NCBI RefSeq assembly: GCF_003790525.1
Contig: NZ_CP033635.1
Length of the DNA stretch: 64,000 nt
Strand: one strand, 5' to 3'
Source of the DNA: Escherichia coli
GTDB taxonomy: Bacteria; Pseudomonadota; Gammaproteobacteria; Enterobacterales; Enterobacteriaceae
The first letter of the stretch is position 1; each line of letters opens with the position of its first letter. Made by a program: the position numbers and the translations under genes. Of this stretch, positions 42,802 through 62,381 are shown piece by piece. The notes beneath the pieces are model-generated. The model had not been told where the DNA came from. It made no database searches and saw only the letters and a program-made list of their open reading frames with translations.

Positions 42802-44379
42802 ATGACGGAAAACATTCATAAGCATAGCATCCTCATTCTGGACTTCGGTTCCCAGTATACTCAACTGGTTGCGCGCCGCGTGCGTGAGCTGGGCGTTTAC
42901 TGCGAACTGTGGGCGTGGGATGTGACAGAAGCACAAATTCGTGACTTCAATCCAAGCGGCATTATTCTTTCCGGCGGCCCGGAAAGCACCACCGAAGAAA
43001 ACAGCCCGCGTGCGCCGCAGTATGTCTTTGAAGCAGGCGTACCGGTATTCGGCGTTTGCTATGGCATGCAGACCATGGCGATGCAGTTGGGTGGTCACGT
43101 TGAAGCCTCTAACGAACGTGAATTTGGCTACGCGCAGGTTGAAGTCGTAAACGACAGCGCACTAGTTCGCGGTATCGAAGATGCGCTGACCGCAGACGGT
43201 AAACCTCTGCTCGATGTCTGGATGAGCCACGGCGATAAAGTTACCGCTATCCCGTCCGACTTCGTCACCGTAGCCAGCACCGAAAGCTGCCCGTTTGCCA
43301 TTATGGCTAACGAAGAAAAACGCTTCTATGGCGTACAGTTCCACCCGGAAGTGACTCACACCCGCCAGGGTATGCGCATGCTGGAGCGTTTTGTGCGTGA
43401 TATCTGCCAGTGTGAAGCCCTGTGGACGCCAGCGAAAATTATCGACGATGCTGTAGCCCGTATCCGCGAGCAGGTAGGCGACGATAAAGTCATCCTCGGC
43501 CTCTCTGGTGGCGTGGATTCCTCCGTGACCGCAATGCTGCTGCACCGCGCTATCGGTAAAAATCTGACTTGCGTATTCGTCGATAACGGCCTGCTGCGTC
43601 TCAACGAAGCAGAGCAGGTTCTGGATATGTTTGGCGATCACTTTGGTCTGAACATTGTTCACGTTCCGGCAGAAGATCGCTTCCTGTCAGCGTTGGCCGG
43701 CGAAAACGATCCGGAAGCAAAACGTAAAATCATCGGGCGCGTTTTCGTTGAAGTATTCGATGAAGAAGCACTGAAACTGGAAGACGTGAAGTGGCTGGCG
43801 CAGGGCACTATCTACCCTGACGTTATTGAATCTGCCGCATCTGCAACCGGTAAAGCACACGTCATCAAATCTCACCACAACGTGGGCGGCCTGCCGAAAG
43901 AGATGAAGATGGGCCTGGTTGAACCGCTGAAAGAGCTGTTCAAAGACGAAGTGCGTAAGATTGGTCTGGAGCTGGGCCTGCCGTACGACATGCTGTACCG
44001 TCACCCGTTCCCGGGACCAGGCCTTGGCGTTCGTGTTCTGGGTGAAGTGAAGAAAGAGTATTGTGACCTGCTGCGCCGTGCTGACGCCATCTTCATTGAA
44101 GAACTGCGTAAAGCGGACCTGTACGACAAAGTCAGCCAGGCGTTCACCGTCTTCCTGCCGGTACGTTCCGTTGGCGTAATGGGCGATGGTCGTAAGTATG
44201 ACTGGGTTGTCTCTCTGCGTGCTGTCGAAACCATCGACTTTATGACCGCACACTGGGCGCATCTGCCGTACGATTTCCTCGGTCGCGTTTCCAACCGCAT
44301 TATCAATGAAGTGAACGGTATTTCCCGCGTGGTGTATGACATCAGCGGCAAGCCGCCAGCTACCATTGAGTGGGAATGA
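42802..44379 (+). CDS. guaA: GMP synthase
   Basis: 525-aa [38 protein letters not shown]. Confidence 0.95.
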
Positions 44380-44425
44380 TTAACAGCTAACTCATAGCAA
44401 CTCATTCCTATTCAGACACTAATTT

Positions 44426-44458
44426 AACCCTCTGTTTTTACAGAGGGTTTTTGTTTTT
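44426..44458 (+). terminator. Intrinsic terminator of guaA
   Basis: aaccctctg-ttttt-acagagggtt followed by tttgttttt. Confidence 0.6.
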
Positions 44459-44514
44459 ATGTATTCATTTCTATTCACTCTACACCATATTTTTTGGCGG
44501 TACAGGTGACGGTA

Positions 44515-44529
44515 TTACCTTAAAGGTAT
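44515..44529. promoter_or_regulatory. Operator-like palindrome TTACCttaaaGGTAt upstream of integrase
   Basis: Member of the recurring TTACC-N5-GGTAA motif family. Confidence 0.4.
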
Positions 44530-44571
44530 ACTCTCATACCGTCATGAAAATGGTTTCTATACGGGTGAATT

Positions 44572-45822
44572 GTGCTTACCGATACAAAATTAAAGAACCT
44601 CAAGCCACAGGACAAACTGTACAAAGTTTCCGATCGTGACGGGCTGTATGTAGCTGTGCTTACGTCAGGTACGGTCTCGTTTCGCTATGACTACCGTATC
44701 AACGGTCGCCGCGAAACACTGGTAATCGGGCAGTATGGGCGTGACGGTATCAGCCTGGCAGAAGCGCGAGAAGAACTGATTGCTGCAAAGAAGCTGCTTA
44801 AAGCAGGCCAGTCGCCGGCTGCGGCTAAACGTGACGGTATCAAAAAGATTCGTGGTGCCGAGACGTTTGCGGTACATACCGACAGTTATATGAAACACGT
44901 CATCCTGGCTGAAAGTACCCGCGCAATGAAGCAGGCAGTGATCGACCGTGACATACTTCCTGTTCTTGGCAACAAAATGATGACTGAAATTACCACATCG
45001 ATGGTTCGTGATTTGTGTGACCGGATTGTCGAACGCGGTGGTCGGGCAACAGCAGTACAGGCCAGGGAGATCATTAGCAGCGTATACCGTCACGCCAATG
45101 ACCGTGGTCATGGTTTGTTTAATCCTGCGGCTGACATTAAACCTTCGTCTATCGCCATATTTAAACCACGAGAGCGAACACTGACACCAGAAGAAATTGG
45201 TCTGTTCTTCCGCACGCTGGATGCCATTGGTGCTATGGGCACTATGAAAATGGCTTTAAAGCTGGTGCTTATCACTATGGTTCGTAAAGGCGAATTCACC
45301 AATGCAACGTGGGACGAAATAGATTTTAAAAAATGGACATGGACAATTCCTTCAGACCGCATGAAGGGAAGCCGGGCGCACGTTATTTACCTGCCAAAAC
45401 AGGCACAGGATATATTGGTTGGGTTGCAGATGTGCGCTGGTGGAAGTGAATATCTGGTTCCTGGTCGTTACAATTTCCGGAAGCCATTATCTAATGCCGC
45501 ACTGAACTCTCTGATCGACAGAACGGTGAAAATAATAAATGAAGATGGTGAGCATATTCAGGGCTTCACCGTACACGATATGCGCCGTACAGCCAGTACG
45601 TTGTTGCATGAGGCTGGTTATCCTTCAGACTGGATTGAAAAGGCTCTGGCACATGAGCAGAAAGGTGTGCGCGCCGTATATAACAAAGCGGAATACGCCA
45701 GACAGCGCGCCTACATGTTGCAGCAGTGGGCCGATATGATTGATTCCTGGATTAACGGGGAGCATACGGATCTAATTCCGTTCTCCCCGTCGAAGTTTGA
45801 GAAGTGGATGGCGGGGGAATAA
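44572..45822 (+). CDS. Tyrosine-type phage integrase (P4-like family)
   Basis: 416-aa ORF MLTDTKLKNLKPQDKLYKVSDRDGLYVAV..., C-terminal HDMRRTASTLL and catalytic-region motifs; GTG start. Confidence 0.85.
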   Translation: MLTDTKLKNLKPQDKLYKVSDRDGLYVAVLTSGTVSFRYDYRINGRRETLVIGQYGRDGISLAEAREELIAAKKLLKAGQSPAAAKRDGIKKIRGAETFAVHTDSYMKHVILAESTRAMKQAVIDRDILPVLGNKMMTEITTSMVRDLCDRIVERGGRATAVQAREIISSVYRHANDRGHGLFNPAADIKPSSIAIFKPRERTLTPEEIGLFFRTLDAIGAMGTMKMALKLVLITMVRKGEFTNATWDEIDFKKWTWTIPSDRMKGSRAHVIYLPKQAQDILVGLQMCAGGSEYLVPGRYNFRKPLSNAALNSLIDRTVKIINEDGEHIQGFTVHDMRRTASTLLHEAGYPSDWIEKALAHEQKGVRAVYNKAEYARQRAYMLQQWADMIDSWINGEHTDLIPFSPSKFEKWMAGE

Positions 45823-45825
45823 CGT

Positions 45826-46020
45826 TTAATAGTTCTGCTGATTTTCTTCCATCTCTGCTTCTGCTGCCAGTGATTCAATTTTGTTTTCGAATATTGCTGA
45901 CAGTGTTGCAAATTCAGCATCAGTGACAGCGGGAATTGGAACAAACCTGATCCCGCTGTGTGCAAGCATGTTTGCAGTTTCAAGGCATTTTCTTAAATCT
46001 GCTGGTGATGCCCTGTTCAT
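45826..46020 (-). CDS. Hypothetical small acidic protein
   Basis: Internal Met of ORF 45826..46140 positioned right after methylase stop; weak support. Confidence 0.2.
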   Translation of the reverse strand: MNRASPADLRKCLETANMLAHSGIRFVPIPAVTDAEFATLSAIFENKIESLAAEAEMEENQQNY

Positions 46021-46679
46021 GCAGCACGCTCCCGCCCCTGGTTGTCTGTTGGTGACAGCGGAGAATTGCTGAATGCATTTGTTAATCCGCCAATATCCAA
46101 CGCGTATCCAGGGTGTAGTTGCACTGCCGAGTTTTCGCACTGATTACCCCAAACATCGAAGCCATGAGACGACTGGCGGGCGAACAGTTCAATGCGAGAA
46201 ACATCGCCTAACAATTGCACAAGTTTTTCACGAACGACATCTGGTTTTCTTGAGTGCTCAAGCCGCGGTGCGGTAAATGACTGAACGATCCCTGCATTAA
46301 TGCGCGGAGGTAGTTTTCCCTTTACCGCAAACAGGCAATCTTCACTATTGGCGCGGGTCATGTGTCCCATACCCATAACCAGTTTATCTGGTTGTCGACT
46401 ACCACATTTTATCCACGTGAAGCCCTTCATGGTCATAAGACGAAATCCCCAGGCTTCAACAACTTTTAGTGCTTCGAGTGGTTGTGTTGGCACCCACCAC
46501 ATGGCCAACAGACAGTTTTCAGCGGCCAAATCCCACACAGGAAGGCGGCAGATATCCAGCACACTCATAACTGGATATTTAAAACCGGCACCGCGATTAC
46601 CATCTGCGGCTTTGTCCCGGTATACCCAGGGTGGATCTGCATAGATTAGTGTGTATTTCTTAGTCATAAACCACCCCAC
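46017..46679 (-). CDS. DNA N6-adenine methyltransferase (MT-A70-like, orphan)
   Basis: 220-aa ORF with DPPW motif (YTLIYADPPWVYR); no adjacent restriction endonuclease recognised. Confidence 0.7.
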   Translation of the reverse strand: MGWFMTKKYTLIYADPPWVYRDKAADGNRGAGFKYPVMSVLDICRLPVWDLAAENCLLAMWWVPTQPLEALKVVEAWGFRLMTMKGFTWIKCGSRQPDKLVMGMGHMTRANSEDCLFAVKGKLPPRINAGIVQSFTAPRLEHSRKPDVVREKLVQLLGDVSRIELFARQSSHGFDVWGNQCENSAVQLHPGYALDIGGLTNAFSNSPLSPTDNQGRERAA

Positions 46680-47068
46680 AACATCCTATGCCGCCATAGT
46701 CGCCACGGCGAAGGCCGTTACCTTTTGTGATACATTGGTCCCTGCGAACCGCGATCCTTGCACGCTCAACATCACCAGAAGCAACATCCATACACTGAAG
46801 CCAAAGGTGAGCGGCAATGCGGAACTGCCCTTTTTTCTCTCTTTCAATCGCGCGTTTTTCGATCTCTATCGCCGCAGGAGTAACGGCGACAATCTTTGAC
46901 GGACTGCGCATTGAAACCTTGTTCATGTGATATTTTTCAAGTCGGCTTAACTTTCTCACTTAATCCAACCCTCTCTGAAAATTAATGCCAGCAGATAAAG
47001 CCATGCTGAAACAGAGGCCAGGAATAAGTACCATCCTGACCATTTGCTCCAGTGCCTTAGCAGCACAC

Positions 47069-47317
47069 TCATGCAGCGTTGCTCACAGGACGATATACAC
47101 GTTGCTGAACAGGAGGCTTTTTACCCTGGAACTCTGCCGGGCTTGCTGCCTGACGTTCATCAAGCCAACGCTCAACTTCATCACGGTTCCATGCGCAGCG
47201 TTTATCGGTGATATACCAGCGTTTAGGAAATTCCCCTGCGCGCTCCATACGGTCGATAGTGCTCCATGACAGTGGCACCACCGCCAGGAGTTCCTTCTTA
47301 CCTAATGCACCTTTCAT
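47069..47317 (-). CDS. AlpA-family phage regulator / excisionase-like
   Basis: 82-aa ORF with ...STIDRMERAGEFPKRWYITDKRCAWNRDEVERWL... Confidence 0.55.
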   Translation of the reverse strand: MKGALGKKELLAVVPLSWSTIDRMERAGEFPKRWYITDKRCAWNRDEVERWLDERQAASPAEFQGKKPPVQQRVYRPVSNAA

Positions 47318-47366
47318 AAATACCTCTCTTGGTTGCAGTGCGGCGCGCGTGGCGCCGCGGTGGTGG

Positions 47367-48248
47367 TTACATAGATGTTTCGTTTAATTCTTCCCGACGA
47401 ACGCTGTAAACGTCGGTGGCTTTTGCCAGCAGTTCGTCATCATCTGAAAGTTTTTGTGCAATGTATTTGTAAGCCTTATCCAGTTCGGAGACAGTGCTGT
47501 AATTCATCGCTGCGCTGGTAAAGGCCATCAGCATTTCTTCTGGCTCACGGCTATCCGCTTTACGCGTTTGCTCATCAGGCTTTTTCACTGATTTAGCGTT
47601 GATCAGACTGTTCATTCCCGCAGCCGTAGTCATTTGCGGAGTAATGTCTCGCTCAACGCGCGGTGCCGTTTCCTGTAATTCGTCAGGGGTGTAAACACCG
47701 AGAAGTACATCAGGAGCGTGCAGGCGAGCCCATCGTTTCGTGCAAAGATATGCAAGTTGCTGGCGCGGATCCTGTTCCCACAATGGAGAGTTACGCACTC
47801 CTGCTTGCGCCATACTGATGGTAAGCTCACGTGGTTCTGCTTCTCCTTTAAGAACTGCTGACACAGTTACCGTCAGATTCGGTGATTTATCTGTTTTGCC
47901 GTTAACATTCGACCAGTCACCGCTCCAGCGATAATTCAGGCGTGTCGCCAGCAGGCTGGAAGAGGATACGACCGCGTTTACCAACTGTGCTTCGTAGCCT
48001 AACGTTCCGTTTACCACATGCGTTTTCTGCGCCACGGCGAAAGGGTTCATTCCCCACTGTGCCGCCTGCATGGTCACCGCCAGGCAATCGGCAGGTTTGC
48101 CTTCAAGATGTTTCGGTACAGTCGCTTTGCTTTGTGACATCAACTCCGCGAAACGCACCAGTTGATTCATACCCTCGGGGCTGAAGATTGCAGCAGCAGT
48201 GCCTACAGTTGCGCCTGGTTGTGATGTGATTGCGATATCATTGCTCAT
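47367..48248 (-). CDS. Single-strand annealing protein (Bet/RecT-like)
   Basis: 293-aa ORF with QAAQWGMNPF segment resembling lambda Bet; directly downstream of exonuclease-like gene. Confidence 0.5.
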   Translation of the reverse strand: MSNDIAITSQPGATVGTAAAIFSPEGMNQLVRFAELMSQSKATVPKHLEGKPADCLAVTMQAAQWGMNPFAVAQKTHVVNGTLGYEAQLVNAVVSSSSLLATRLNYRWSGDWSNVNGKTDKSPNLTVTVSAVLKGEAEPRELTISMAQAGVRNSPLWEQDPRQQLAYLCTKRWARLHAPDVLLGVYTPDELQETAPRVERDITPQMTTAAGMNSLINAKSVKKPDEQTRKADSREPEEMLMAFTSAAMNYSTVSELDKAYKYIAQKLSDDDELLAKATDVYSVRREELNETSM

Positions 48249-49066
48249 ACGTACATATCCTGTTTACGTGCCCAGTCAGGGCGTTTAATAATTTCCACTC
48301 CGCCCCATTCATCGTTGATGCGGCATTCGTGATAGGTATTCAGATCCCGGCGGAACAGAGCGTGCCCGGCATCGACATCCTGCGCATCCAGCTCGAACAC
48401 GCGTACCGGATACCGACCACAATCAATGCTTTCGCTCACGGCAAGAAAGAAAAAACCATGCGGCTGACCAGTAACCATCATTGCGCCTTCGCGGTACATT
48501 GCGTCCTGCACGTGGTAGCGGAATTCCTCGATGTGGCGTGCAAAACGGTCCATATCTGCAACCTTTTTCACGTCGACGATCACGTTGTGCTCGTTCAGCC
48601 ATTTGTCTGGACGAATTCGGCACAACTCCCCCGTCTCTTCATCGTTCCAGTACATTGATGCTTCGCAGTAACCAGGTGCTTCCAGCATCCAGCGTGCCGC
48701 CGGGTGAGCCATTGCGCTATCACGCATCAGCTCCAGTTTCCGCCACTGCTCGGCATCAAGTACCGTAATCCCCATATCCGCCACATCACGAAGAAATTCC
48801 TCTTCGTCAGCTTTACCTTGTTTCGTCCGACGATCGAATTTCGGTGAAACAATGAAGCGTTTGTCGAACTCTCCAGGCTCCAGAAGCAGACAGTGCAATG
48901 CGGTTCCCATATCCAGTGCAGACTTTTTCTCTTCGTCTTCTGGTGCTGCCTGAACCCATTTAAGAAGCGCCGGATTCTTGGCAACCATGTCCAGTTGCGA
49001 CTTACTCACGCCGTCACCGGCGTGGTAGTCTTCGTTGCTGATGTCGAAATAAATTCCCGGTTTCAT
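48245..49066 (-). CDS. Putative PD-(D/E)xK recombination exonuclease
   Basis: 273-aa ORF with D...IVDVKKV motif, overlapping start/stop with annealase gene. Confidence 0.5.
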   Translation of the reverse strand: MKPGIYFDISNEDYHAGDGVSKSQLDMVAKNPALLKWVQAAPEDEEKKSALDMGTALHCLLLEPGEFDKRFIVSPKFDRRTKQGKADEEEFLRDVADMGITVLDAEQWRKLELMRDSAMAHPAARWMLEAPGYCEASMYWNDEETGELCRIRPDKWLNEHNVIVDVKKVADMDRFARHIEEFRYHVQDAMYREGAMMVTGQPHGFFFLAVSESIDCGRYPVRVFELDAQDVDAGHALFRRDLNTYHECRINDEWGGVEIIKRPDWARKQDMYV

Positions 49067-49377
49067 GCCGCGTCCCTCTGCCCATCAAGCTGATCAGCCA
49101 GATCCCAGCGGGCGATAATTGCCATTGCCTCGCGCCGGTAGGCATCCATTAGTTCTTCGAACTCAGGGCTGTCTTTAGCGGCCTCCAGTACTTCCTGGCG
49201 AACGCCTTTAACTGTTACAACGTCGAAAGTTGATGCCAGTTGATGAAGCCGGATACTCTCAATCAGTTCAACTTGTCGGTCATATAGCTGTTCTGACAGA
49301 CGGTAGTCCTTGTCGAATGCCAGCATGATTTTTTGAAGATTTTTCTGCTGATTAACGTTCATTATCAGCCCTCCCAT
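49063..49377 (-). CDS. Hypothetical early protein
   Basis: 104-aa ORF, first gene of leftward operon, overlapping stop with exonuclease gene. Confidence 0.4.
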   Translation of the reverse strand: MGGLIMNVNQQKNLQKIMLAFDKDYRLSEQLYDRQVELIESIRLHQLASTFDVVTVKGVRQEVLEAAKDSPEFEELMDAYRREAMAIIARWDLADQLDGQRDAA

Positions 49378-49526
49378 ATCTCGTTATCGTTGGCCACATC
49401 GCGAGCTTCTTTGCTGACGAAAGCCCACTTAATGCCTTCCTGTAAGGTGCGGAACTTCCAGCTCATGAATCCGCATGCAGTAACGCAGTACCAACCGTTG
49501 ATGATTTTCCACTGCATAACTTGTTA

Positions 49527-49603
49527 CCTCGGTCTGTTACCGTTGAGGTAATAATTATGCGTATATGGTTTGATGTCAATAGATATGAGTTAAAAAAATT
49601 ACC
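49527..49603. promoter_or_regulatory. OL-like operator pair (two perfect TTACC-N5-GGTAA palindromes)
   Basis: TTACCgttgaGGTAA at 49527-49541 and TTACCcgttaGGTAA at 49589-49603, between leftward early operon and repressor gene. Confidence 0.5.
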
Positions 49604-49670
49604 CGTTAGGTAATCGAATAGGCAATAAAAAAGCCGCCATAAGGCGGCTTACTTACTGAAAAATATGGTT

Positions 49671-50255
49671 TTATTGTTTGTTTTTTTCGTTCTGGTTGAT
49701 GACAAATTCAATGTAACTTTCGATCTTTGCTTTCTCGGTTTCGGGTAACAATGCGTAGCGCGAGCGATCATAGTTGATGGTCGCAGGGTCATGCGGATGA
49801 ATCAGTAGTTCATATCCGTGACGCCCGAATGCAGATGCAACATTCTCCAGGGTGGAAATGGAAACGCTGACCTCATTGTTTAACAGGCGGCTTATTGTCA
49901 CCTGGGCGACGCCGGATGCGCGGTGAAGTTTTCCCTGAGTTGAAAGGTCGCGGCTTTCACTCATCCAGCGTTCCAGGTTGTGAGCCGCCAGCTGACCTAT
50001 ATCACTCGGGCCGACAGGCTGAAAACCCTCCTGAGAAAGCGAGCGATCAATATCAAGCCAGTTACGGGGTTTATTGGCGGCAGCTTCAATTTTTCGCGCA
50101 ACCTGGTCGCCGATAACCTTCTTGCCAAGAGCCCAGCGGTTTACCAGATTTGCCTGAGTTCCAAGTTTTTCTGCCATCCGCGTCTGAACACCATTGAATT
50201 CACGGTCGATCAAGTCGTTGAGATTTTGCCTGCGGACGTCCTGGATACTTTTCAT
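49671..50255 (-). CDS. Prophage repressor (two HTH regions)
   Basis: 194-aa ORF divergent from cro-like gene; HTH-like segments QTRMAEKLGTQANLVNRWALGKK and ASGVAQVTISRLLNNE. Confidence 0.55.
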   Translation of the reverse strand: MKSIQDVRRQNLNDLIDREFNGVQTRMAEKLGTQANLVNRWALGKKVIGDQVARKIEAAANKPRNWLDIDRSLSQEGFQPVGPSDIGQLAAHNLERWMSESRDLSTQGKLHRASGVAQVTISRLLNNEVSVSISTLENVASAFGRHGYELLIHPHDPATINYDRSRYALLPETEKAKIESYIEFVINQNEKNKQ

Positions 50256-50310
50256 TTTCTGGAAAATCGCCTCATATATGAATCAGTAGATGATTCAATT
50301 TAAAGCAATA

Positions 50311-50373
50311 TTACCCAACAGGTAAATGCACCTCATGGGTAACTATCCTTGATTTTTGTTACCTTATGGGTGA
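50311..50373. promoter_or_regulatory. OR-like operator cluster between repressor and cro-like genes
   Basis: TTACCcaacaGGTAA (50311-50325), weak gcACCtcatgGGTAA (50328-50342), TTACCttatgGGTgA (50359-50373); promoter-like TTGTTA-17-TATTAT overlaps. Confidence 0.5.
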
Positions 50374-50409
50374 ATATTTATTATCTGAAATAAATATCAG
50401 GCAATAGCT

Positions 50410-50640
50410 ATGAGCGATAACGGACATTTCGATTTCAAAAAGCACTGGCTTGCACTTACTCCGGATGAGCGTGAAGCCTTCGCACAGGAAGCCGGAACGA
50501 CGAGTCACTATATCCAGACTCACTTAACAGGTAAGCGCAAAATGCCAGGTAAAGTATTGATGAATGGGCTTTTTAAAGCCTGTAAAACAAGACAATGGCT
50601 GCGCTCAAAAGCAGAACTGGCATACTTCTTCTACTCATGA
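50410..50640 (+). CDS. Cro-like early regulator
   Basis: 76-aa ORF divergent from repressor; followed by terminator. Confidence 0.45.
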   Translation: MSDNGHFDFKKHWLALTPDEREAFAQEAGTTSHYIQTHLTGKRKMPGKVLMNGLFKACKTRQWLRSKAELAYFFYS

Positions 50641-50662
50641 TATCCAGCTACAACCCTCTGTA

Positions 50663-50684
50663 GACCGCCACCCGGCGGTCTTTT
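50663..50684 (+). terminator. Intrinsic terminator after cro-like gene
   Basis: gaccgcc-accc-ggcggtc followed by tttt. Confidence 0.5.
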
Positions 50685-50695
50685 CATATCTATTC

Positions 50696-50710
50696 GTACC
50701 TCAAAGGTAA
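50696..50710. promoter_or_regulatory. Operator-like palindrome gTACCtcaaaGGTAA
   Basis: Motif family member immediately after the cro terminator. Confidence 0.35.
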
Positions 50711-50788
50711 TAAAAAACCAAATCTGGTTGATCAAATTTTCCAATTGTGCAAAATAGCCAATATCAATAACAAAAAGGTGCGGAAAAA

Positions 50789-51001
50789 TTGAAGATAGTA
50801 ACCAGAATGGAGGCCGCAAAAGCCGGGTTAAATCGCTATTTCACAGGAAAGCGGTGCCGTCACGGCCATCTCTCTGAAAGGTATGTTCTGAACGGAACAT
50901 GTGTTGAATGTGCAATGAATAGCGCCAACCGCCATCGTAATGAATTTGCTTGTGCACTAAAGAGTGCAAGAGGGGAAACCTATGGCAAGCAGCTGGATTA
51001 A
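50789..51001 (+). CDS. Small zinc-ribbon-like protein
   Basis: 70-aa ORF with C-x-H-G-H ... C-x2-C; TTG start in track, true start uncertain. Confidence 0.35.
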   Translation: MKIVTRMEAAKAGLNRYFTGKRCRHGHLSERYVLNGTCVECAMNSANRHRNEFACALKSARGETYGKQLD

Positions 51002-51812
51002 GGTTGAAGTTATCACTCCTGATAAACCTGAAATTTTTCAGATAGCAGAAATTCTGGGTATTGATCCAGATGCTGTTCTTGGAAAGCTGGTTCGTATATG
51101 GGCATGGGCTGACCAGCAAACAATAGACGGTAACGCTGGCAGCGTTACAAAAGGAGTACTTGATAGACTCGCTTTTATTACAGGATTTGCTGACGCCCTC
51201 ATTAGCGTCGGATGGCTTGCTTATCATGACGGCAAACTAATTCTTCCAAACTTTGAGCGACACAATGGAGAATCATCGAAAAAACGTGCACTTACGAATA
51301 GAAGAGTGGCAGAGCATCGAAAACGAGTAACGCAAAAAGTAACGCCAACAGCGTTACAAAAGGAGTTACCAGAGGAAGAGGAAGAGGAAGATATATATAA
51401 AACCCCACACATAGCGCACGTGCGCGAGGGGGCTACGACCAGTGAAGCGAACGGTATGCCGTTGCAGGTGGCTGAACCTGAATTTCTGGATGGCCTGAGT
51501 GAACCCATCGGGAAATTTCCGATGACCGATGACTGGCATCCGTCGCCGGATTTTCGACGGCGTGCTGCGCTGTGGGGAACGGCCCTGCCGGAACCGGAAT
51601 TTACACCTGCTGAACTTGCTGCATTCCGGGATTACTGGATGGCTGAGGGCAAAGTGTTCACGCAGGTTCAGTGGGAACAAAAATTCGCCAGGCACGTAAA
51701 TCATATCAGGGGAAAATCAAAAAACGCCGGGAAAAGCGATGAGCTTGACTGGAATAACACTGACTGGATAGAAGGGGTGTGGGATGAAATCAACTCCAGA
51801 ACTTCTCAATGA
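50982..51812 (+). CDS. Replication initiation protein (O-like)
   Basis: Start MASSWIKVEV after GAGGGG RBS; acidic EEEEEED linker; overlaps start of P-like gene. Confidence 0.45.
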   Translation: MASSWIKVEVITPDKPEIFQIAEILGIDPDAVLGKLVRIWAWADQQTIDGNAGSVTKGVLDRLAFITGFADALISVGWLAYHDGKLILPNFERHNGESSKKRALTNRRVAEHRKRVTQKVTPTALQKELPEEEEEEDIYKTPHIAHVREGATTSEANGMPLQVAEPEFLDGLSEPIGKFPMTDDWHPSPDFRRRAALWGTALPEPEFTPAELAAFRDYWMAEGKVFTQVQWEQKFARHVNHIRGKSKNAGKSDELDWNNTDWIEGVWDEINSRTSQ

Positions 51813-52560
51813 GTACGATCGCTTACGTGAGCATGGTGTTGCTGTGCATGAAGAGCGGCGTGACAGCAATGGCAAAAAGGAGCAGGTCGCTAGAATTTTC
51901 AATGAACTATTTGTCCAGTTACAGGCTGCATTTCCCGCAAGCGTTTCGACCATAAGGGAGCAGAACAAACTTAATGAATTCCGTAAGCAATGGATGCTTG
52001 CGTTTCTGGAGAATGGGATCACAACAATGGAACAGGTTAACGCTGGTATGCGCCACGCCCGCGCCAGTGAGTCTCCGTTCTGGCCGTCGCCAGGGCAATT
52101 TATCAAGTGGTGTAAAGACAGCAAGATGGTTCTTGGCGTCACCATTGACGATGTGATGGCGGAGTTTCACCGGTACAGCAAGGAAAAAAGTTTATATCCT
52201 GGTGGTCCCGAAAGATTCCCGTGGCGGCATCCGGTTATGTACTGGGTCGTATGTGATACCCGCCGTGCAATGTATCAGCGCCAGCTTAGCGAGATTGAAG
52301 TTGAGAAACACGCGCGCAGGCTGCTCGATGATTGGGCGAAAAAGGTGGCTTCCGGGCAGCAGATACCCGATCCGGTGATCAGCATACAGGCAAAGCCAGA
52401 ACCCATGAGTACGCCTCCGGACACAGGGAGAGACGTTTACCACCCGCCAGGGCGAAGTTTCGGGTGCATGCCTAACGCCGCCACCCTTGGGGGAATAACA
52501 CCGGCTCAGTGGCTGATGGAGGAATACAGGCGGGGAAAGGCGGCAGGATTTATCAAGTAA
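51784..52560 (+). CDS. Replication protein P-like (DnaB helicase loader)
   Basis: 258-aa ORF with ENGITTMEQVNAGMRHAR and PSPGQF, matching lambda P as recalled. Confidence 0.75.
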   Translation: MKSTPELLNEYDRLREHGVAVHEERRDSNGKKEQVARIFNELFVQLQAAFPASVSTIREQNKLNEFRKQWMLAFLENGITTMEQVNAGMRHARASESPFWPSPGQFIKWCKDSKMVLGVTIDDVMAEFHRYSKEKSLYPGGPERFPWRHPVMYWVVCDTRRAMYQRQLSEIEVEKHARRLLDDWAKKVASGQQIPDPVISIQAKPEPMSTPPDTGRDVYHPPGRSFGCMPNAATLGGITPAQWLMEEYRRGKAAGFIK

Positions 52561-52597
52561 TACCAGCGCGATAGCGCATTTTTTTACGCCTTGATAA

Positions 52598-52612
52598 TTA
52601 CCTGTAGGGTAA
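52598..52612. promoter_or_regulatory. Operator-like palindrome TTACCtgtagGGTAA
   Basis: Perfect motif family member. Confidence 0.4.
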
Positions 52613-52659
52613 CAAAATATTCTAAACTCTATTGATTTCGTGTCTTATGTGGTTTTTAA

Positions 52660-52674
52660 TTACCTCAGAGGTAA
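52660..52674. promoter_or_regulatory. Operator-like palindrome TTACCtcagaGGTAA 3 nt upstream of ATG
   Basis: Perfect palindrome overlapping the translation initiation region of the 52678 gene. Confidence 0.4.
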
Positions 52675-52677
52675 ATC

Positions 52678-53022
52678 ATGAGAAAACAGATACAGGCTCT
52701 TGGTCGACTCAAAACAGGCCAGATGAACAAAACAGAATCTGCGTATTGCCAGCACCTTGAGCTGCGTAAACGTGCAGGGGAAATCGCCTGGTATCGATTC
52801 GAGGGTATCAAGCTGCGGTTAGCTGACAACACGTTCTATACGCCCGATTTTGCTGTGATGCTCGCCACCGGCGAGATGGAACTGCACGAAGTGAAAGGTT
52901 TCTGGACCGACGACGCTAGGGTGAAAACCAAAGTCGCCGCAGATCAGTATCCGTTCCGAATCATCGGGGTAACGGTTAAACCAAAGAAAGCAGGTGGTGG
53001 CTGGAACATCGAAGAGTTCTGA
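52678..53022 (+). CDS. Small PD-(D/E)xK-like nuclease (nin-region)
   Basis: 114-aa ORF with YTPDFAVM...GEMELHEVKGFW (D, E-x-K pattern). Confidence 0.4.
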   Translation: MRKQIQALGRLKTGQMNKTESAYCQHLELRKRAGEIAWYRFEGIKLRLADNTFYTPDFAVMLATGEMELHEVKGFWTDDARVKTKVAADQYPFRIIGVTVKPKKAGGGWNIEEF

Positions 53023-53083
53023 ATCGACGATCTTTTTAGTTATCAATGTAATCAATAAGTTATGTGGATAAGCGAGGGTAAAG

Positions 53084-53626
53084 ATGGAAAGTAATATCAA
53101 AGGGTTAGTTGCCGCCGGGCATGAGATGGCTTCGGAACTGAAAGCTGAATGTGGTGCCGTTGATATGCGTAGTGTGGCAAAGCTGCTCAGCGATTTGGCA
53201 ACGCAACTGGAAGTGCAACTGGTGCGTGCTAATGCGCTGGCCGAAGACCAACAGAGAGCGATTGAGTCAATTAAGCAGGCTGATTCGGCTGTTAAGTTGG
53301 CACACAAGAAGTTTTCGGAGCTGGCAGCGGAGAATGCGGCACTGAAGGCTGCGCACCCTCAACCATTCGGACCTGAGATGATGAAGGCTCTTGATGCGTA
53401 TGAGAAGTATCAGGATGAAGTGCCGGAGACTGGGATGCTCAATGCATTTTTCATCTTGCGCGACAGTATCCGTGTTGACACCCCAGCCACCGACGCTTTC
53501 CTAGCTGAAGTTCGAGCGCAGGGTGTAGATATGGCAGCTTGCGCCCTTGATAACGTAAACCAGTTCAATTACGCAAACATGCTCGATGATTTAGCGCAGA
53601 AGATTCGCAAAGGAGTGCAGTCATGA
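53084..53626 (+). CDS. Hypothetical phage protein
   Basis: 180-aa ORF, helical/coiled-coil composition. Confidence 0.4.
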   Translation: MESNIKGLVAAGHEMASELKAECGAVDMRSVAKLLSDLATQLEVQLVRANALAEDQQRAIESIKQADSAVKLAHKKFSELAAENAALKAAHPQPFGPEMMKALDAYEKYQDEVPETGMLNAFFILRDSIRVDTPATDAFLAEVRAQGVDMAACALDNVNQFNYANMLDDLAQKIRKGVQS

Positions 53627-53808
53627 AAAACCGTAAAGCCAAAATCATCGTTCTTCGCGCTCTGAAAAACTGCTACCCGCGCCAATGGCTGAATGTAAGC
53701 AATCGACGCATGGTTCTCTTCACGCTAGGTGGTGTTAGCCGTGAAGGGCATCAATTCAAAAACAGCGCAGCACAGAATCGCTGGAAGAATCATGCGAGGT
53801 TCCAATGA
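53623..53808 (+). CDS. Small basic protein, paralog 1 (MKNRKAK family)
   Basis: 61-aa ORF starting ATGAAAAACCGTAAAGC, ATGA overlap with upstream stop; ends AAQNRWKNH. Confidence 0.35.
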   Translation: MKNRKAKIIVLRALKNCYPRQWLNVSNRRMVLFTLGGVSREGHQFKNSAAQNRWKNHARFQ

Positions 53809-53914
53809 GCAATATCGACAAGCGGCCTCTACGTGACAAGCTGTCACCGTATGACACAGAAGAGATGCTTGAGGCTATGCGTATTTTTCTGTAAGAACAG
53901 GGAGGTGAGCAAAA

Positions 53915-54232
53915 ATGACGATCACAAAACAACGGGTAGAAGAAATCATATCCCGCATTGAAATGTATGGGCATGGCGCAGGGTATACCGCCGAAGAGGT
54001 TTATGACCTGGCTGTACTGGCGCTGAATTTATCAAATATCGCAAAACTCAAGCGATACGAGCTTGATATGGATGGTTGTGACTCGTTCGGTCAGGATTGT
54101 GGCGCTGACATGACTGAAGATTCTGATGGCGATTATGTCCTGTTTGATGACGTGGTTAAGTTGTTTGAGTTTGATACAACCACTCAGAAGATAGAAAGCC
54201 CAGCAAAGGAGGCAACCAGTGAGCAAGATTGA
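53915..54232 (+). CDS. Hypothetical phage protein
   Basis: 105-aa acidic ORF. Confidence 0.35.
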   Translation: MTITKQRVEEIISRIEMYGHGAGYTAEEVYDLAVLALNLSNIAKLKRYELDMDGCDSFGQDCGADMTEDSDGDYVLFDDVVKLFEFDTTTQKIESPAKEATSEQD

Positions 54233-55875: not shown

Positions 55876-56159
55876 TGGTCTCCTTCGCGAAATATACGAT
55901 TATTGACTGGATAGCATTCATTCAGGTTTTGCTCATCTGGTTTTATATGGCTTACAGGAGTGGACAGTGGATTGTCAGTGTAGCCTGTAGCAATGGATGG
56001 CGTTGGTGGAACCGAAAGAATAAAAAAGCGCTGGCCTTGGCTTCGTTTTACGAAGCATTCAATCTTAACAGTCTTCAGCCTGGTTCTGTCGTTGTAGTCA
56101 CCACTCAAAGCGGCATGACGATACAAATTCACAAGCCAAAGGAGGAAGGTCGTGGCTAA
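55872..56159 (+). CDS. Hypothetical small membrane protein
   Basis: 95-aa ORF with hydrophobic N-terminal segment. Confidence 0.3.
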   Translation: MMVSFAKYTIIDWIAFIQVLLIWFYMAYRSGQWIVSVACSNGWRWWNRKNKKALALASFYEAFNLNSLQPGSVVVVTTQSGMTIQIHKPKEEGRG

Positions 56160-56433
56160 CCTGCAACTTGCCGTTAAAGGTGAATACTTCGATGCCATGA
56201 TTCGCGGGGAGAAAACGGAAGAGTATCGCCTGTGTAATGACTACTGGAATAAGCGAATTATGTTCCGCGAGTATGACCGCCTGATTATCACAAAGGGATA
56301 TCCGAAGCGCGACGATTCCAGCCGCAGAATTGACGTCCCGTATGACGGATATGAAATCAAGACAATCACACATCCGCACTTCGGCGATAAACCGGTAAAG
56401 GTGTTCGCTATAAAGGTGAATATTGATGGCTAA
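56152..56433 (+). CDS. ASCH-domain-like protein
   Basis: 93-aa ORF MANLQLAVKGEYFDAMIRGEKTEEYR. Confidence 0.4.
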   Translation: MANLQLAVKGEYFDAMIRGEKTEEYRLCNDYWNKRIMFREYDRLIITKGYPKRDDSSRRIDVPYDGYEIKTITHPHFGDKPVKVFAIKVNIDG

Positions 56434-56764: not shown

Positions 56765-56882
56765 CATGTCACGAGTAGATTATGCATGATGAATTTGATG
56801 GGTTTTGAATACTGCCGCCAACTATGGCGGCTTTATTTTGCATGGTACTATTACCACAACGGTAACTATTACCACGGTGGTT

Positions 56883-57479
56883 ATGATGCCTGCTGAACCT
56901 AAAACCTATAAACGCAAATCAACGCAATTTAAGCCGCTCACAGCAATGCAGGAGGCTTATTGCCAGTCATACATCAAAACGCCTGAAAACCAGACTCAGG
57001 CAGCGATTAACGCAGGATTCTCCCCAAATACAGCGGCAGTTAAAGCCAGTGTCATGATGCGCGATGAACGCATTCAAAAACGGATTGCCGAGTTGATGGA
57101 GGAGCGCAACAAACGAATGCGCGTCAGTGCTGATTACGTTCTCATGCGCCTGGTGGAGATCGACCAGATGGACGTGATCGATATCCTCAACGACGATGGG
57201 AGCCTTAAACCAATCCGTGAGTGGCCGAAAATCTGGCGCACTACGCTTAGTGGCTTTGATCTGTCATCGACCATCATGAACATGAACGAGGATTCGATAG
57301 AGACAATCCTCAAAAAAATTAAATGGCCTGACAAGGTGAAGAACCTCGAACTGATTGGTAAGCACGTCGACGTTAACGCGTTCAAAGAACGTCTGGATGT
57401 TAATGTGAATGTGACAATTGCTGATCGCATAGCAGCAGCCAGGAAGCGACTCAAAGAACGTCAGGATGGTAATCAGTGA
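56883..57479 (+). CDS. Terminase small subunit
   Basis: Positioned immediately before terL with GTGA stop/start overlap; start inferred at MMPAEPKTYKRK. Confidence 0.5.
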   Translation: MMPAEPKTYKRKSTQFKPLTAMQEAYCQSYIKTPENQTQAAINAGFSPNTAAVKASVMMRDERIQKRIAELMEERNKRMRVSADYVLMRLVEIDQMDVIDILNDDGSLKPIREWPKIWRTTLSGFDLSSTIMNMNEDSIETILKKIKWPDKVKNLELIGKHVDVNAFKERLDVNVNVTIADRIAAARKRLKERQDGNQ

Positions 57480-58950
57480 CAGATACAGCGTTATCTCCTG
57501 AAGAGCAGTTGATCGAGGATATTGCAGGGTTCACTCACGATCCGCTTGGCTATGCCCTCTATGCGTTCCCGTGGGGGAAGAGGGTACTGAACTGGCACAT
57601 GCCACCGGCCCACGTCAGTGGCAGGCTGATGCGTTCCGAGAGATACGTGATCACCTGCAGAATCCAGAGACGCGCTATCAGCCGCTTATGCTGGCACGCG
57701 CTTCTGGTCACGGTATTGGTAAATCCGCATTCATCTCAATGCTGATCAACTGGGGCATGTCCACTTGCGAGGATTGTAAGGTCGTGGTGACCGCCAACAC
57801 CGACAACCAGCTACGAACTAAGACCTGGCCGGAAATTATCAAGTGGTCGAACCTTGCTATCACGAAAGACTGGTTTACCTGTACCGCTACCGCGATGTAC
57901 AGCAATGATCCTGGGCACGACAAGCGGTGGCGAGCTGACGCAATCCCTTGGTCTGAGCACAACACTGAGGCATTCGCCGGACTACACAACGAGCGTAAAC
58001 GCATCATCGTGGTATTTGATGAAGCGTCGAACATTGCGGATCTGGTGTGGGAAGTTGCCGAGGGTGCGCTAACGGACGAAGACACTGAGATTATCTGGGT
58101 GGCGTTCGGAAACCCTACACGTAACACCGGACGTTTCCGCGAATGTTTCCGCAAATATAAACACCGCTGGAAAACTGCGCAGATTGACAGCCGAACGGTG
58201 GAAGGCACTAACAAACAGCAGTTGCAGAAATGGGTTGATGACTACGGGGAAGACAGCGACTTCGTTAAAATCCGTGTGCGCGGCATATTCCCTGATGCAT
58301 CTGAATTGCAGTTTATCCCTACCGGTCTTACTGATGAGGCAATGAAACGGGTGGTGACCGCTGCGCAGGTGGCGCATGCTCCGGTGATAATCGGTGTTGA
58401 CCCGGCATATTCAGGCGTTGATGACGCGGTGATATACCTGCGGCAGGGGCTACACAGTAAGGTGCTGTGGACTGGCAACAAGACTACCGACGATCTGATT
58501 ATGGCGAAGCGTATCGCTGACTTTGAAGACCAGTATCAGGCTGACGCGGTGTTCATCGACTTCGGTTACGGAACCGGTTTGAAGTCAATCGGTGATGGCT
58601 GGGGACGTACATGGCAACTTGTTCCGTTCGGTGGCGCGTCTACTGACCCGCAGATGCTCAACAAGCGTGGGGAGATGTTCAACTCATGCAAGACATGGCT
58701 GAGGCTCGGCGGCATGCTGGATGACCAGGAAACTGCAGACGACCTGTCGGCGGCAGAGTACAAAGTTCGTGTGGACGGTAAAATCGTTATCGAACCGAAG
58801 GAAGATATCAAAGAGCGGCTTGGGCGTTCGCCTGGTAAAGGCGATGCGCTACTGCTGACGTTTGCTTTCCCGGTGTCAAAGCGCCTGCGACTTCCCGGGC
58901 AGCAGAACCAGCAAGGCAAGGCGCTTACCGAGTACGATCCATATGCTTAG
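57476..58950 (+). CDS. Terminase large subunit, apparently frameshifted in a G5 run (57573-57577)
   Basis: Coupled GTG start 57476 gives 32 codons in one frame; Walker-A (GHGIGKS) body continues in another frame from 57571; adding one G restores a single ORF. Confidence 0.7.
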
Positions 58951-59987: not shown

Positions 59988-60064
59988 TGGCGCGGCATGC
60001 AGGATTCGAACCTGCGACCAACCGCTTAGAAGGCGGTTGCTCTGTCCAACTGAGCTAATGCCAC
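59988..60064 (-). tRNA. tRNA-Arg (anticodon UCU), phage-encoded
   Basis: 77-nt cloverleaf folded by hand: acceptor GTGGCAT/ATGCCGC, anticodon loop CTTCTAA, T-loop GCAGG-TTCGAAT-CCTGC, encoded CCA. Confidence 0.85.
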
Positions 60065-60701: not shown

Positions 60702-62381
60702 ATGGCGGAAACAACTAAAGAGCGATTGAACAAACAGTTCGCACAACTTGAAAGCGAGCGTCAGTCGTTCGAGCCGCACTGGCGCGAGTTGAGTGATTAC
60801 ATCAACCCGCGTGGTTCCCGCTTTCTGACTTCTGAGGTCAACCGTAACGATCGACGCAATACACGCATTATTGATTCGACCGGGACTATGGCGGCGCGCA
60901 CTCTCGCCAGCGGCATGATGTCAGGCATCACAAGCCCCGCGCGTCCGTGGTTTCGCCTGGCTACGCCAGATCCTGAAATGATGGATTATGGCCCTGTTAA
61001 GTTGTGGCTTGAGGCGGTGCAGAACCGCATGAACGATATGTTCAATAAGTCGAATCTCTACCAGTCTCTTCCGCAGTTATACGGAAGCCTCGGCACATAC
61101 AGCACTGGTGCAATGGCGGTGCTGGAGGATGACGAGGACATCATTCGCACAATGCCATTCCCGATAGGCAGTTACTACCTGGCTAACTCACCTCGTGGCA
61201 GTGTGGACACCTGTTTTCGCAAGTTCTCTATGACTGTTCGTCAGCTTGTTCAGGAGTTCGGGCTAAATAACGTCAGCGAATCCGTAAAAAGCATGTGGGA
61301 AAGCGGCACCTACGAGAAGTGGATTGAAGTGATGCATTCGGTTTACCCGAACATTGACCGCGATACATCGAAGCTGGATAGCAAGAACAAGCCATTCAAA
61401 TCGGTTTATTACGAGGTTGGTGGCGATAACGACAAGTTGTTGCGTGAGTCCGGATTCGATGAGTTTCCAATTATGGCTCCGCGCTGGGAAGTTAACGGCG
61501 AAGATGTTTATGGATCATCATGCCCGGGTATGCTGGCGCTTGGACCTGTTAAGGCATTGCAGCTTCTCCAGAAGCGCAAGTCGCAGTTGATTGATAAAGC
61601 CACCAATCCGCCGATGGTTGCTCCGACTTCCCTCAAGAATCAGCGCGCCTCCCTTCTTCCTGGCGACATAACGTATATCGATCAGATTACTGGTCAGGAT
61701 GGTTTCAGGCCTGCTTATCTGGTTAACCCCAGTACAGCAGATCTGGTAGCAGACATTCAGGACACCCGCCAAATCATTAACAGCGCCTACTTTGTCGATC
61801 TGTTCATGATGTTGCAGAACATCAATACCCGCTCGATGCCTGTTGAAGCGGTGATCGAAATGAAAGAAGAAAAACTTCTGATGTTGGGGCCGGTTCTGGA
61901 GCGTCTGAACGACGAATGTCTTAATCCTCTCATTGACCGCGCTTTCTCGATGATGGTGCGTAAAAACATGCTGCCGCCACCGCCTGACGCGATGGAAGGT
62001 ATGCCCCTGAAGGTCGAATACATTTCTGTCATGGCTCAGGCGCAGAAGTCTATCGGCCTGTCCAGTCTGGCGTCTACGGTCAACTTCATTGGTCAACTTG
62101 CGCAAGCGAAACCAGAAGCTCTCGACAAACTCAATGTTGATCAGGCGATCGATGCATTCGCTGATATGTCCGGAGTGTCTCCAACCGTCATTGTTCCGCA
62201 GGAACAGGTTGAGCAGGCTCGCCAGCAACGGGCACAGCAGCAACAGCAGCAACAAATGATGGCGATGGGAATGGCGGCGGCACAGGGCGCCAAGACGCTA
62301 AGCGAAGCTAAAACTTCGGATCCGAGTGTTTTGTCAGCTATGGCGAATGCAGTTAGTGGTCAGGGTGGGCAATCACAATGA
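60702..62381 (+). CDS. Portal (head-tail connector) protein
   Basis: 559-aa ORF after terminase; Gln/Ala/Met-rich C-terminal tail reminiscent of podovirus connectors. Confidence 0.65.
   Translation: MAETTKERLNKQFAQLESERQSFEPHWRELSDYINPRGSRFLTSEVNRNDRRNTRIIDSTGTMAARTLASGMMSGITSPARPWFRLATPDPEMMDYGPVKLWLEAVQNRMNDMFNKSNLYQSLPQLYGSLGTYSTGAMAVLEDDEDIIRTMPFPIGSYYLANSPRGSVDTCFRKFSMTVRQLVQEFGLNNVSESVKSMWESGTYEKWIEVMHSVYPNIDRDTSKLDSKNKPFKSVYYEVGGDNDKLLRESGFDEFPIMAPRWEVNGEDVYGSSCPGMLALGPVKALQLLQKRKSQLIDKATNPPMVAPTSLKNQRASLLPGDITYIDQITGQDGFRPAYLVNPSTADLVADIQDTRQIINSAYFVDLFMMLQNINTRSMPVEAVIEMKEEKLLMLGPVLERLNDECLNPLIDRAFSMMVRKNMLPPPPDAMEGMPLKVEYISVMAQAQKSIGLSSLASTVNFIGQLAQAKPEALDKLNVDQAIDAFADMSGVSPTVIVPQEQVEQARQQRAQQQQQQQMMAMGMAAAQGAKTLSEAKTSDPSVLSAMANAVSGQGGQSQ

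Follow-up and report, generated by a model that had tools for sequence, protein, structure and literature searches.

The terL locus and its two reading frames

The window, by which we mean the whole stretch of 64,000 nucleotides of Escherichia coli DNA analysed here (from NZ_CP033635.1), contains a prophage in which the gene for the terminase large subunit, terL, lies directly after the gene for the small subunit, terS, and before the portal gene (Table 1). The gene order in the window, terS-terL-cargo-tRNA-Arg-gp3-portal, is that of the E. coli relatives. terS is intact; its counterpart in the relatives is also 675 nt long, lies at the equal position and is annotated as “terminase small subunit” (WP_001090120.1), and its product matches the terminase small subunit family PHROG 51 with an E-value of 6e-58. 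As a preliminary description of this DNA had it, the stop codon of terS (TGA, 57477-57479) overlaps a GTG start at 57476 in the tetranucleotide GTGA, and this is confirmed both from the sequence and from the list of open reading frames.

The frame that begins at this GTG (frame A) is composed of 34 native TerL codons (57476-57577), whose residues 1-34 are identical to those of phiV10, and then of 55 out-of-frame codons. The preliminary description placed the stop of this frame correctly at 57745 but counted 32 codons before the frame is lost, while the native part in fact extends through W33-G34. The body of terL with all of the catalytic motifs is found in another frame (frame B), which is -1 relative to frame A and is hence explained by either the deletion of one base or the re-reading of one base; the overlap of A and B falls on GGGGG (57573-57577). 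Frame B is open from 57502, and its first start is GTG at 57571, the last G of which is the first G of the GGGGG run. This GTG had been regarded as the only start available to the body and as having no Shine-Dalgarno sequence. The latter holds, but ATG at 57688, from which a 420-aa product would be made, is a second frame-B start upstream of the Walker A motif; no Shine-Dalgarno sequence is present in the 20 bases upstream of either GTG 57571 or ATG 57688. Reinitiation at the frame-B ATG that overlaps the frame-A stop (ATGCTGA) would yield a 403-aa product without Walker A. When one G is added to the run, the two frames become a single open reading frame of 1476 nt and 491 aa, in which the junction peptide is FPWGEEGTELAH and the stretch across the join reads FPWGEEGTEL.

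Table 1. Features of the terL locus in the window (positions are those of the whole stretch)
Feature	Position	Strand	Description and basis
terS (terminase small subunit)	56805..57479	+	224 aa, intact; ORF list, relatives' annotation, PHROG 51
terL (terminase large subunit), pseudogene as written	57476..58950	+	1475 nt vs 1476 nt expected
Frame A	57476..57745	+	89 codons + stop; TGA 57743-57745
Frame B (terL body)	57571..58950	+	459 codons/459 aa, all catalytic motifs; ORF list
G5 homopolymer	57573..57577	+	site of one-base deletion; G6 in relatives
Walker A P-loop SGHGIGKS	57703..57726	+	residues 77-84 of the repaired protein
ATGCTGA	57739..57745	+	frame-A stop overlapping frame-B ATG; sequence
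Walker B Asp and catalytic Glu (D182/E183)	58018..58023	+	in IIVVFDEAS; both invariant in alignment
Portal gene	60702..62381		downstream of terL; Head-tail_con in relatives

Identity of the gene and its intact relatives

The repaired protein matches PHROG 2, “terminase large subunit,” with an E-value of 1e-52 over residues 21-479. No Pfam-A domain at E ≤ 0.001, no NCBIfam model and no PDB sequence match was found for it, and the family was assigned instead from PHROG 2 together with the conservation of the motifs and the modelled fold. An exhaustive homologue search gave 9,082 representatives at E ≤ 0.001, and in the full-length homologues, which go down to ~40% identity, the alignment starts at query residues 5-17. 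In an alignment of 97 homologues, G78 of Walker A is invariant, and S77, G80, G82 and K83 are conserved in at least 90%; the deviant S-x4-GK[ST] form of Walker A is usual in TerL. Among the acidic residues of the nuclease, D309 is invariant in this 97-sequence alignment, and D362 and D457 are conserved in at least 90%. An AlphaFold2 model built from the same alignment has a pLDDT of 94.3 and a pTM of 0.83, and the top 22 PDB matches of this model by Foldseek are all large terminases (Sf6, D6E, T4 gp17 and HK97).

The best of these matches (E-value, 4e-17) is Sf6 gp2, a motor composed of an ATPase and an RNase H-like nuclease (PDB 4IDH and 4IFE), to which the model corresponds over both domains (E 4e-17 to 1e-16, probability 1.00); the Walker A, Walker B and acidic nuclease residues are conserved in the repaired TerL as well. 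The two proteins nonetheless share only 15-17% sequence identity, and the whole-chain TM score is only 0.35-0.40, presumably reflecting a different orientation of the domains. Isolated TerL nuclease domains were also matched, with TM scores of ~0.6-0.68 (Sf6, 5C10 with TMt 0.68; E217, 8DKR; G20c, 5M1F). By its identity, the gene is a bona fide terL; as written, it is a pseudogene, the frame of which is broken after codon 34.

We then searched the 5,426 complete genomes of E. coli and phage records with a 701-nt query across the site, which hit 526 records in 523 of the genomes and 27 phage records. All close matches among those listed span 702 bases, i.e., one above the length of the query, and the one extra base is present in 15 of 15 records of E. 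coli phages. Over terS-terL, the window is 96-98% identical in nucleotides to phiV10, vB_EcoP_ZX5, PAS61, TL-2011b and other E. coli phages; epsilon15, SPN1S and Tyrion match the 701-nt query at ~80%, and all of these are podophages of the Uetakevirus type. The best match of the region among the complete E. coli genomes is 99.3%, and none is 100%. Direct alignment, which the preliminary description had proposed, places the extra base exactly in the G run: the E. coli prophages and phiV10 read GTGGGGGGAAG (G6), which spans the codons TGG GGG GAA for W33, G34 and E35, and epsilon15 reads GTGGGGAGAGG, where the run is broken (GGGGAG). In the aligned relatives, terL is continuous over 1476 nt and overlaps the terS stop by 4 nt. 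Furthermore, a 23-nt pattern with G6 occurs in at least 120 contigs of IMG/VR, and the corresponding pattern with G5 in none. Since the intact relatives carry one more G, the run was ancestrally G6, and a single G is missing from it in the window.

The repaired protein differs by only one amino acid from WP_225090658.1 in a prophage of E. coli 20AR0300, by three from the LS45 protein, by five from phiV10 gp2 and by 28 from epsilon15 TerL. With a fused product that is nearly identical to intact TerLs, the repair into one open reading frame is far beyond chance. The earlier proposal of a terL gene interrupted by a one-base frameshift in the G run, which a single G mends, is hence borne out.

The preliminary description had also named what would speak against a frameshift, namely related intact phages with the same G5 run and a 459-aa terminase starting at the internal GTG. 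Here, the native functional terminase would be the protein from GTG 57571, and the 32-34 codons upstream would be outside the gene; indeed, every catalytic motif is downstream of the run, and this product is emitted by gene callers. The intact phages, however, all encode proteins of 491-493 aa (phiV10, epsilon15, Tyrion, SPN1S and a Klebsiella phage) from the upstream start that overlaps the terS stop, and GTG 57571, which has no Shine-Dalgarno sequence, is out of frame when the run is G6. Also, comparison of codons 2-34 with those of epsilon15, Tyrion, SPN1S and the Klebsiella phage shows 14-18 synonymous codon changes and only 2-7 that alter the amino acid; P23 and W33 (consensus DPLGF...AFPWG) reach at least 90% conservation among the 97 homologues, to ~40% identity, and the full-length homologues align from the N-terminal region as described above. 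In the AlphaFold2 model, residues 8-30 fold into two helices, with mean pLDDT values of 98-99 for the 10-residue blocks over 11-40. The lost N-terminus is thus not only conserved and constrained by purifying selection but also ordered within the predicted Sf6-gp2-like fold. Because this segment is constrained and conserved, the 459-aa form is not a native alternative, and the starts of the intact phages, the homologue alignments and the conservation effectively refute it as the native terminase.

Deletion, base-calling error or recoding

The shortened run is rare but not unique to the window. When the run lengths were read with a seed-restricted 45-nt query, G5 was found in three and G7 in none of the 5,426 complete E. 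coli genomes, i.e., G5 in three of the ~523 that carry this terL; the others read G6. The three strains with G5 pseudogenes, E. coli VE-V11-M (QQK36_RS05990), Z1323CEC0014 (WHU39_RS10140) and UID2404240036 (ACYTVD_RS17885), have the identical lesion in the same kind of prophage, for which the PGAP label is “terminase, frameshifted,” and the prophage of Z1323CEC0014 lies at guaA like that of the window. Their terL backgrounds, however, are 49-149 nt different from the window, their neighbouring cargo gene is another one (Gp49 family), and two of the three have further indels suggestive of noisy assemblies. In total, G5 recurs on at least eight other backgrounds, some in noisy and some in clean assemblies. 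The exact 459-aa product of frame B (P0001) is recorded from five other contigs, all of which are different sequences, and at least six other 459-aa variants are found in Logan or NCBI assemblies; the exact 89-aa peptide of frame A is absent from the protein collection searched.

The nearest relative, L129 (GCA_045572415.1), carries essentially the prophage of the window, with seven mismatches in 7.2 kb, four of which are beside its own indels, and also reads G5. This assembly is noisy: over 7 kb it has another 13 short indels, and the other G5 of the region is shortened to G4 in it. Among the further assemblies with G5, L005 has a second indel in terL, and L007 and L131 have other homopolymer indels. 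In L130 (from a 62-kb Logan contig), L133 and L006, the deletion in the G run is the only single-base coding indel, and the backgrounds are 3-4% divergent.

We consider that a genuine slip-strand deletion in terL is the most probable reading (probability roughly 0.6), and the two causes that the preliminary description had left side by side, an inactivating mutation and a sequencing or assembly error, both remain with the mutation somewhat favoured. Our inference is that the base is missing from the DNA of the strain and was not dropped in sequencing, and the assembly is otherwise clean. Over positions 1-24000, the window matches at least ten independent complete genomes in one piece at 100.0% identity, and positions 24001-49000 are 100.0% identical to strain 702/18. 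Positions 43000-53522, including the prophage from the integrase at 44572, differ from 702/18 by eight mismatches and no gaps, and the 49 A/T runs of at least six and the 18 G/C runs of at least five in this segment are all of concordant length. In ~19 kb of aligned prophage, the G run of terL is the only 1-nt indel, and the only other length difference is a private deletion of 11 bp at ~60411, which is absent from all relatives and from the 5,426 complete genomes. A deletion of 11 bp is atypical of a sequencing artefact, and this copy of the prophage thus has real private lesions. We also considered that the 11-bp deletion might remove a leftward promoter (deleted bases TTGACA on the minus strand), but a consensus scan gave no full promoter there in an intact relative, and this idea is unsupported.

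The alternative is that the DNA of the strain in truth carries G6, and with it an intact terL, and that one G was under-called, for instance in a long-read or unpolished consensus; we regard this as less probable than a genuine deletion but as a serious competitor. Other homopolymer indels accompany the G5 calls in the assemblies of L129, L005, L007 and L131, the changes are in the direction of deletion only (G5 in three genomes and G7 in none), which is the usual direction of homopolymer errors in long reads, and IMG/VR is without G5. Moreover, G/C runs of at least six are nearly absent from the 64 kb (one C6), and the wild-type G6 of terL would exceed every other G run in the window; since it would then be the most error-prone G site there, the clean remainder of the window tests the run only weakly. 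Against such an artefact, no further single-base indel is present either in the 53.5 kb set against independent genomes or in the rest of the aligned prophage, and the A/T and G/C runs counted above are correct. Furthermore, G5 is also found in L130, L133 and L006 without any other single-base coding indel, and the nearly identical L129 and the window both read G5.

The preliminary description had moreover raised slippage-prone expression, in which the G5 allele would still give the full-length TerL by -1 frameshifting on G_GGG or by transcriptional slippage. The shift needed is indeed -1, a tRNA-Gly paired with GGG can move to the overlapping GGG without any mismatch, and small amounts of TerL would probably suffice. 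A run of G5 is, however, short for slippage of RNA polymerase, and no heptamer of the type X_XXY_YYZ is present; in the 0 frame, which reads CCG UGG GGG AAG, there is only a G_GG.G tetramer. In E. coli, Z_ZZ.N tetramers without a stimulator were reported to shift at ~0.15% compared with a background of 0.11%, and the signal of G_GG.G was put down to spurious initiation at a Shine-Dalgarno-like sequence (Sharma et al. 2014, PMC4066793). The 100 nt downstream of the run (57578-57677) fold with -31 kcal/mol, which is close to the mean of shuffled sequences (-28.8 kcal/mol; z, -0.65). In the intact relatives, no shift is needed and no two-frame architecture exists, and the run is confined to the E. 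coli clade: Gly34 is encoded by GGG only there and by GGA, GGC or GGT in epsilon15, Tyrion, SPN1S and the Klebsiella phage. The run hence looks like an accident of codon choice. In the known -1 sites of dnaX (A_AAA_AAG) and lambda G/GT (G_GGA_AAG), a shift on a purine run is likewise needed for joining the frames, but terL has neither an in-register heptamer nor a stimulatory structure, nor a conserved run with a two-frame architecture, and one of its frames is the plain tail of a pseudogene. Because there is no heptamer and no downstream structure, the run is unconserved and an isolated G_GG.G barely shifts, programmed frameshifting was rejected, and recoding of any kind is very unlikely to account for the locus.

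A related idea, to which we attach only a slightly higher though still small likelihood, is that the G6 of terL acts as a reversible contingency switch that grounds and restores prophages, or, as a weaker version, that leaky -1 decoding gives particles at a low level. The recurrence of G5 on at least eight backgrounds, otherwise clean contigs included, would be in line with a switch, but these are partly noisy assemblies, the allele amounts to ~0.6% of complete genomes, and G7 was never seen. A tract maintained by selection across the clade is not what we observed; the tract exists only where Gly34 is encoded by GGG and is broken in the sister phages. We found no paper on frameshifts in the phiV10 terminase. 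If the switch were real, loss of a G would repeatedly stop packaging and escape of the prophage, and a +1 slip could restore its mobility.

The prophage and the predicted packaging defect

From the nucleotide similarity and gene order of its packaging/head module, the prophage is epsilon15/phiV10-like (Uetakevirus-type), and it is integrated next to guaA. In phiV10 (gp2, AAZ95895.1) and epsilon15 (AAO06065.1) of the genus Uetakevirus, the same gene is found in the same position with a GTGA or ATGA overlap with terS, and terL is likewise followed by a variable gene on the minus strand and then by gp3 and the portal gene; in phiV10, the region is 98% identical in nucleotides to the window. The difference lies in the run: terL is intact (1476 nt) in both phiV10 (G6) and epsilon15 (GGGGAG), whereas that of the window with G5 is out of frame after codon 34. 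The neighbouring cargo protein of the window (272 aa) is found in 1764 blocks and stands next to an intact 491-aa terL in 10 of the 10 matches listed. As a known defence gene, the cargo gene gave only weak matches of a coiled-coil type in PADLOC (E 2e-5 to 1e-2), and such an assignment was dropped. Other genes of the prophage in the window are intact as in the relatives, including those for the integrase, MT-A70 methylase, RecT, nuclease, TerS and portal protein as well as repressor-like HTH proteins and the replication genes.

Supposing a genuine deletion, an ancestral terL of 1476 nt would have lost one G of six, for which slippage during replication in the bacterial lineage is the most likely cause. 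Ribosomes that start at GTG 57476, coupled to the terS stop, would then make 34 native and 55 out-of-frame residues, i.e., a useless peptide of 89 aa, and the ATPase-nuclease body would be left without an efficient route of translation, so that no functional TerL is expected. Upon induction, the prophage might still undergo excision, replication, procapsid assembly and lysis, but packaging of its DNA would not be possible unless the run reverted to G6 or TerL was supplied by a related phage. We thus predict a packaging-defective phenotype.

In conclusion, the locus can be put down to an ordinary pseudogene of a prophage or to a sequencing error in a homopolymer and calls for no new mechanism, and identical lesions are already known from the three public genomes labelled by PGAP. 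In terms of annotation, one frameshifted terL pseudogene should be entered at 57476..58950 in place of two genes or a 459-aa “terminase,” with the prophage counted as probably defective in packaging. The repeated reading of G5 in the TGG-GGG-GAA run of public E. coli assemblies points to a minor mutational hot spot or else to a site of systematic error, and the run in terL is hence worth checking before phiV10-like prophages are scored as intact or defective. A real deletion would be a recent and isolated inactivation of terL and a textbook first step of prophage domestication.

Integration site and mosaicism of the prophage

The prophage in the window, which is of the phiV10/epsilon15-like (Uetakevirus) type, was found directly downstream of guaA, and the same site is also occupied by related prophages in E. 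coli strains 702/18 and Z1323CEC0014. Over its chromosomal part, which spans yfhM to guaA (1-44.4 kb), the window is 100.0% identical to strain 702/18. Two stretches upstream of the small terminase gene terS did not align to the 702/18 prophage, even though that prophage is otherwise nearly identical; both align with other relatives (L001, L004, and L129, the last being the nearly identical prophage of GCA_045572415.1). These breaks fall among genes for DUF551, DUF4752, ASCH, and Ea22-like proteins and are typical of modular exchange.

Features of the prophage and its chromosomal flank (window coordinates)
Feature	Position	Strand	Remarks
Adhesin ORF, 2691 aa	31609..39684		chromosomal part of the window
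guaA	42802..44379		
Tyrosine integrase	44572..45822		prophage gene near guaA
Mosaic breaks	53522-54203; 55877-56427		"nin-like" region, upstream of terS
Cargo protein gene, 272 aa	58947..59765	-	phrog_4780
tRNA-Arg, anticodon TCT	59988..60064	-	cargo gene on one side, head genes on the other
Deletion, 11 bp	60411/60412		intergenic, between tRNA-Arg and the gp3 ORF; from alignment with relatives
gp3 ORF, 68 aa	60481..60687		

Cargo, tRNA, and a private deletion downstream of terL

The slot from the stop of the large terminase gene terL to the phage tRNA-Arg is a variable cargo position, occupied in the relatives by a Gp49-family protein of 123 aa or by unrelated ORFs that are 139, 181, or 264 aa long. 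In the window, the slot holds a gene whose stop overlaps the terL stop region and whose 272-aa product has a hydrophobic N-terminus followed by a coiled coil; its matches in PADLOC and NCBIfam were weak and of the coiled-coil type only. This cargo allele is very common, with 1764 blocks of the collection listing the protein. The adjoining tRNA-Arg is the sole tRNA in the window and is kept in the E. coli relatives; its anticodon reads AGA, a rare codon in E. coli.

Between this tRNA and gp3, furthermore, the window lacks 11 bases, GTTAAATGTCA, that are present in every relative examined, including the nearly identical L129, and the resulting junction had no match among 5,426 complete E. coli genomes. 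Located 10 nt to the left of the deletion is a palindrome, TTACCTGAAAGGTAA, which aligns with the epsilon15 site annotated as "repressor, lysogeny" (AY150271, 2931-2947); conservation of the surrounding stretch extends out to epsilon15. Read on the minus strand, the deleted bases spell TTGACA, but a scan of this site in an intact relative did not reveal a full consensus promoter.

Terminase homologues and a second lesion

Many homologues of the repaired TerL, such as P0016 (814 aa, 92% identical) and P0024, are 810-880 aa long and carry ~320-390 extra residues, which split the Walker A loop precisely between residues K83 and S84 (GHGIGK/ALRPDD...IVTHN/SAFIS, with slashes at the junctions). Given the LAGLIDADG-like motif LLDTDGWV within it, this P-loop insertion resembles an intein that contains a homing endonuclease; it is confined to the relatives and is absent from the window.

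Z1323CEC0014 is one of the three complete genomes with the G5 terL allele, in which one G is lost from a G6 run and the frame is broken. In the same prophage of this strain, a DnaT-like replication gene (L144, 19647..20461) is also annotated as frameshifted, while the flanking chromosomal genes (12 kb) are clean. The DnaT-like frameshift is a second lesion in the Z1323CEC0014 prophage.
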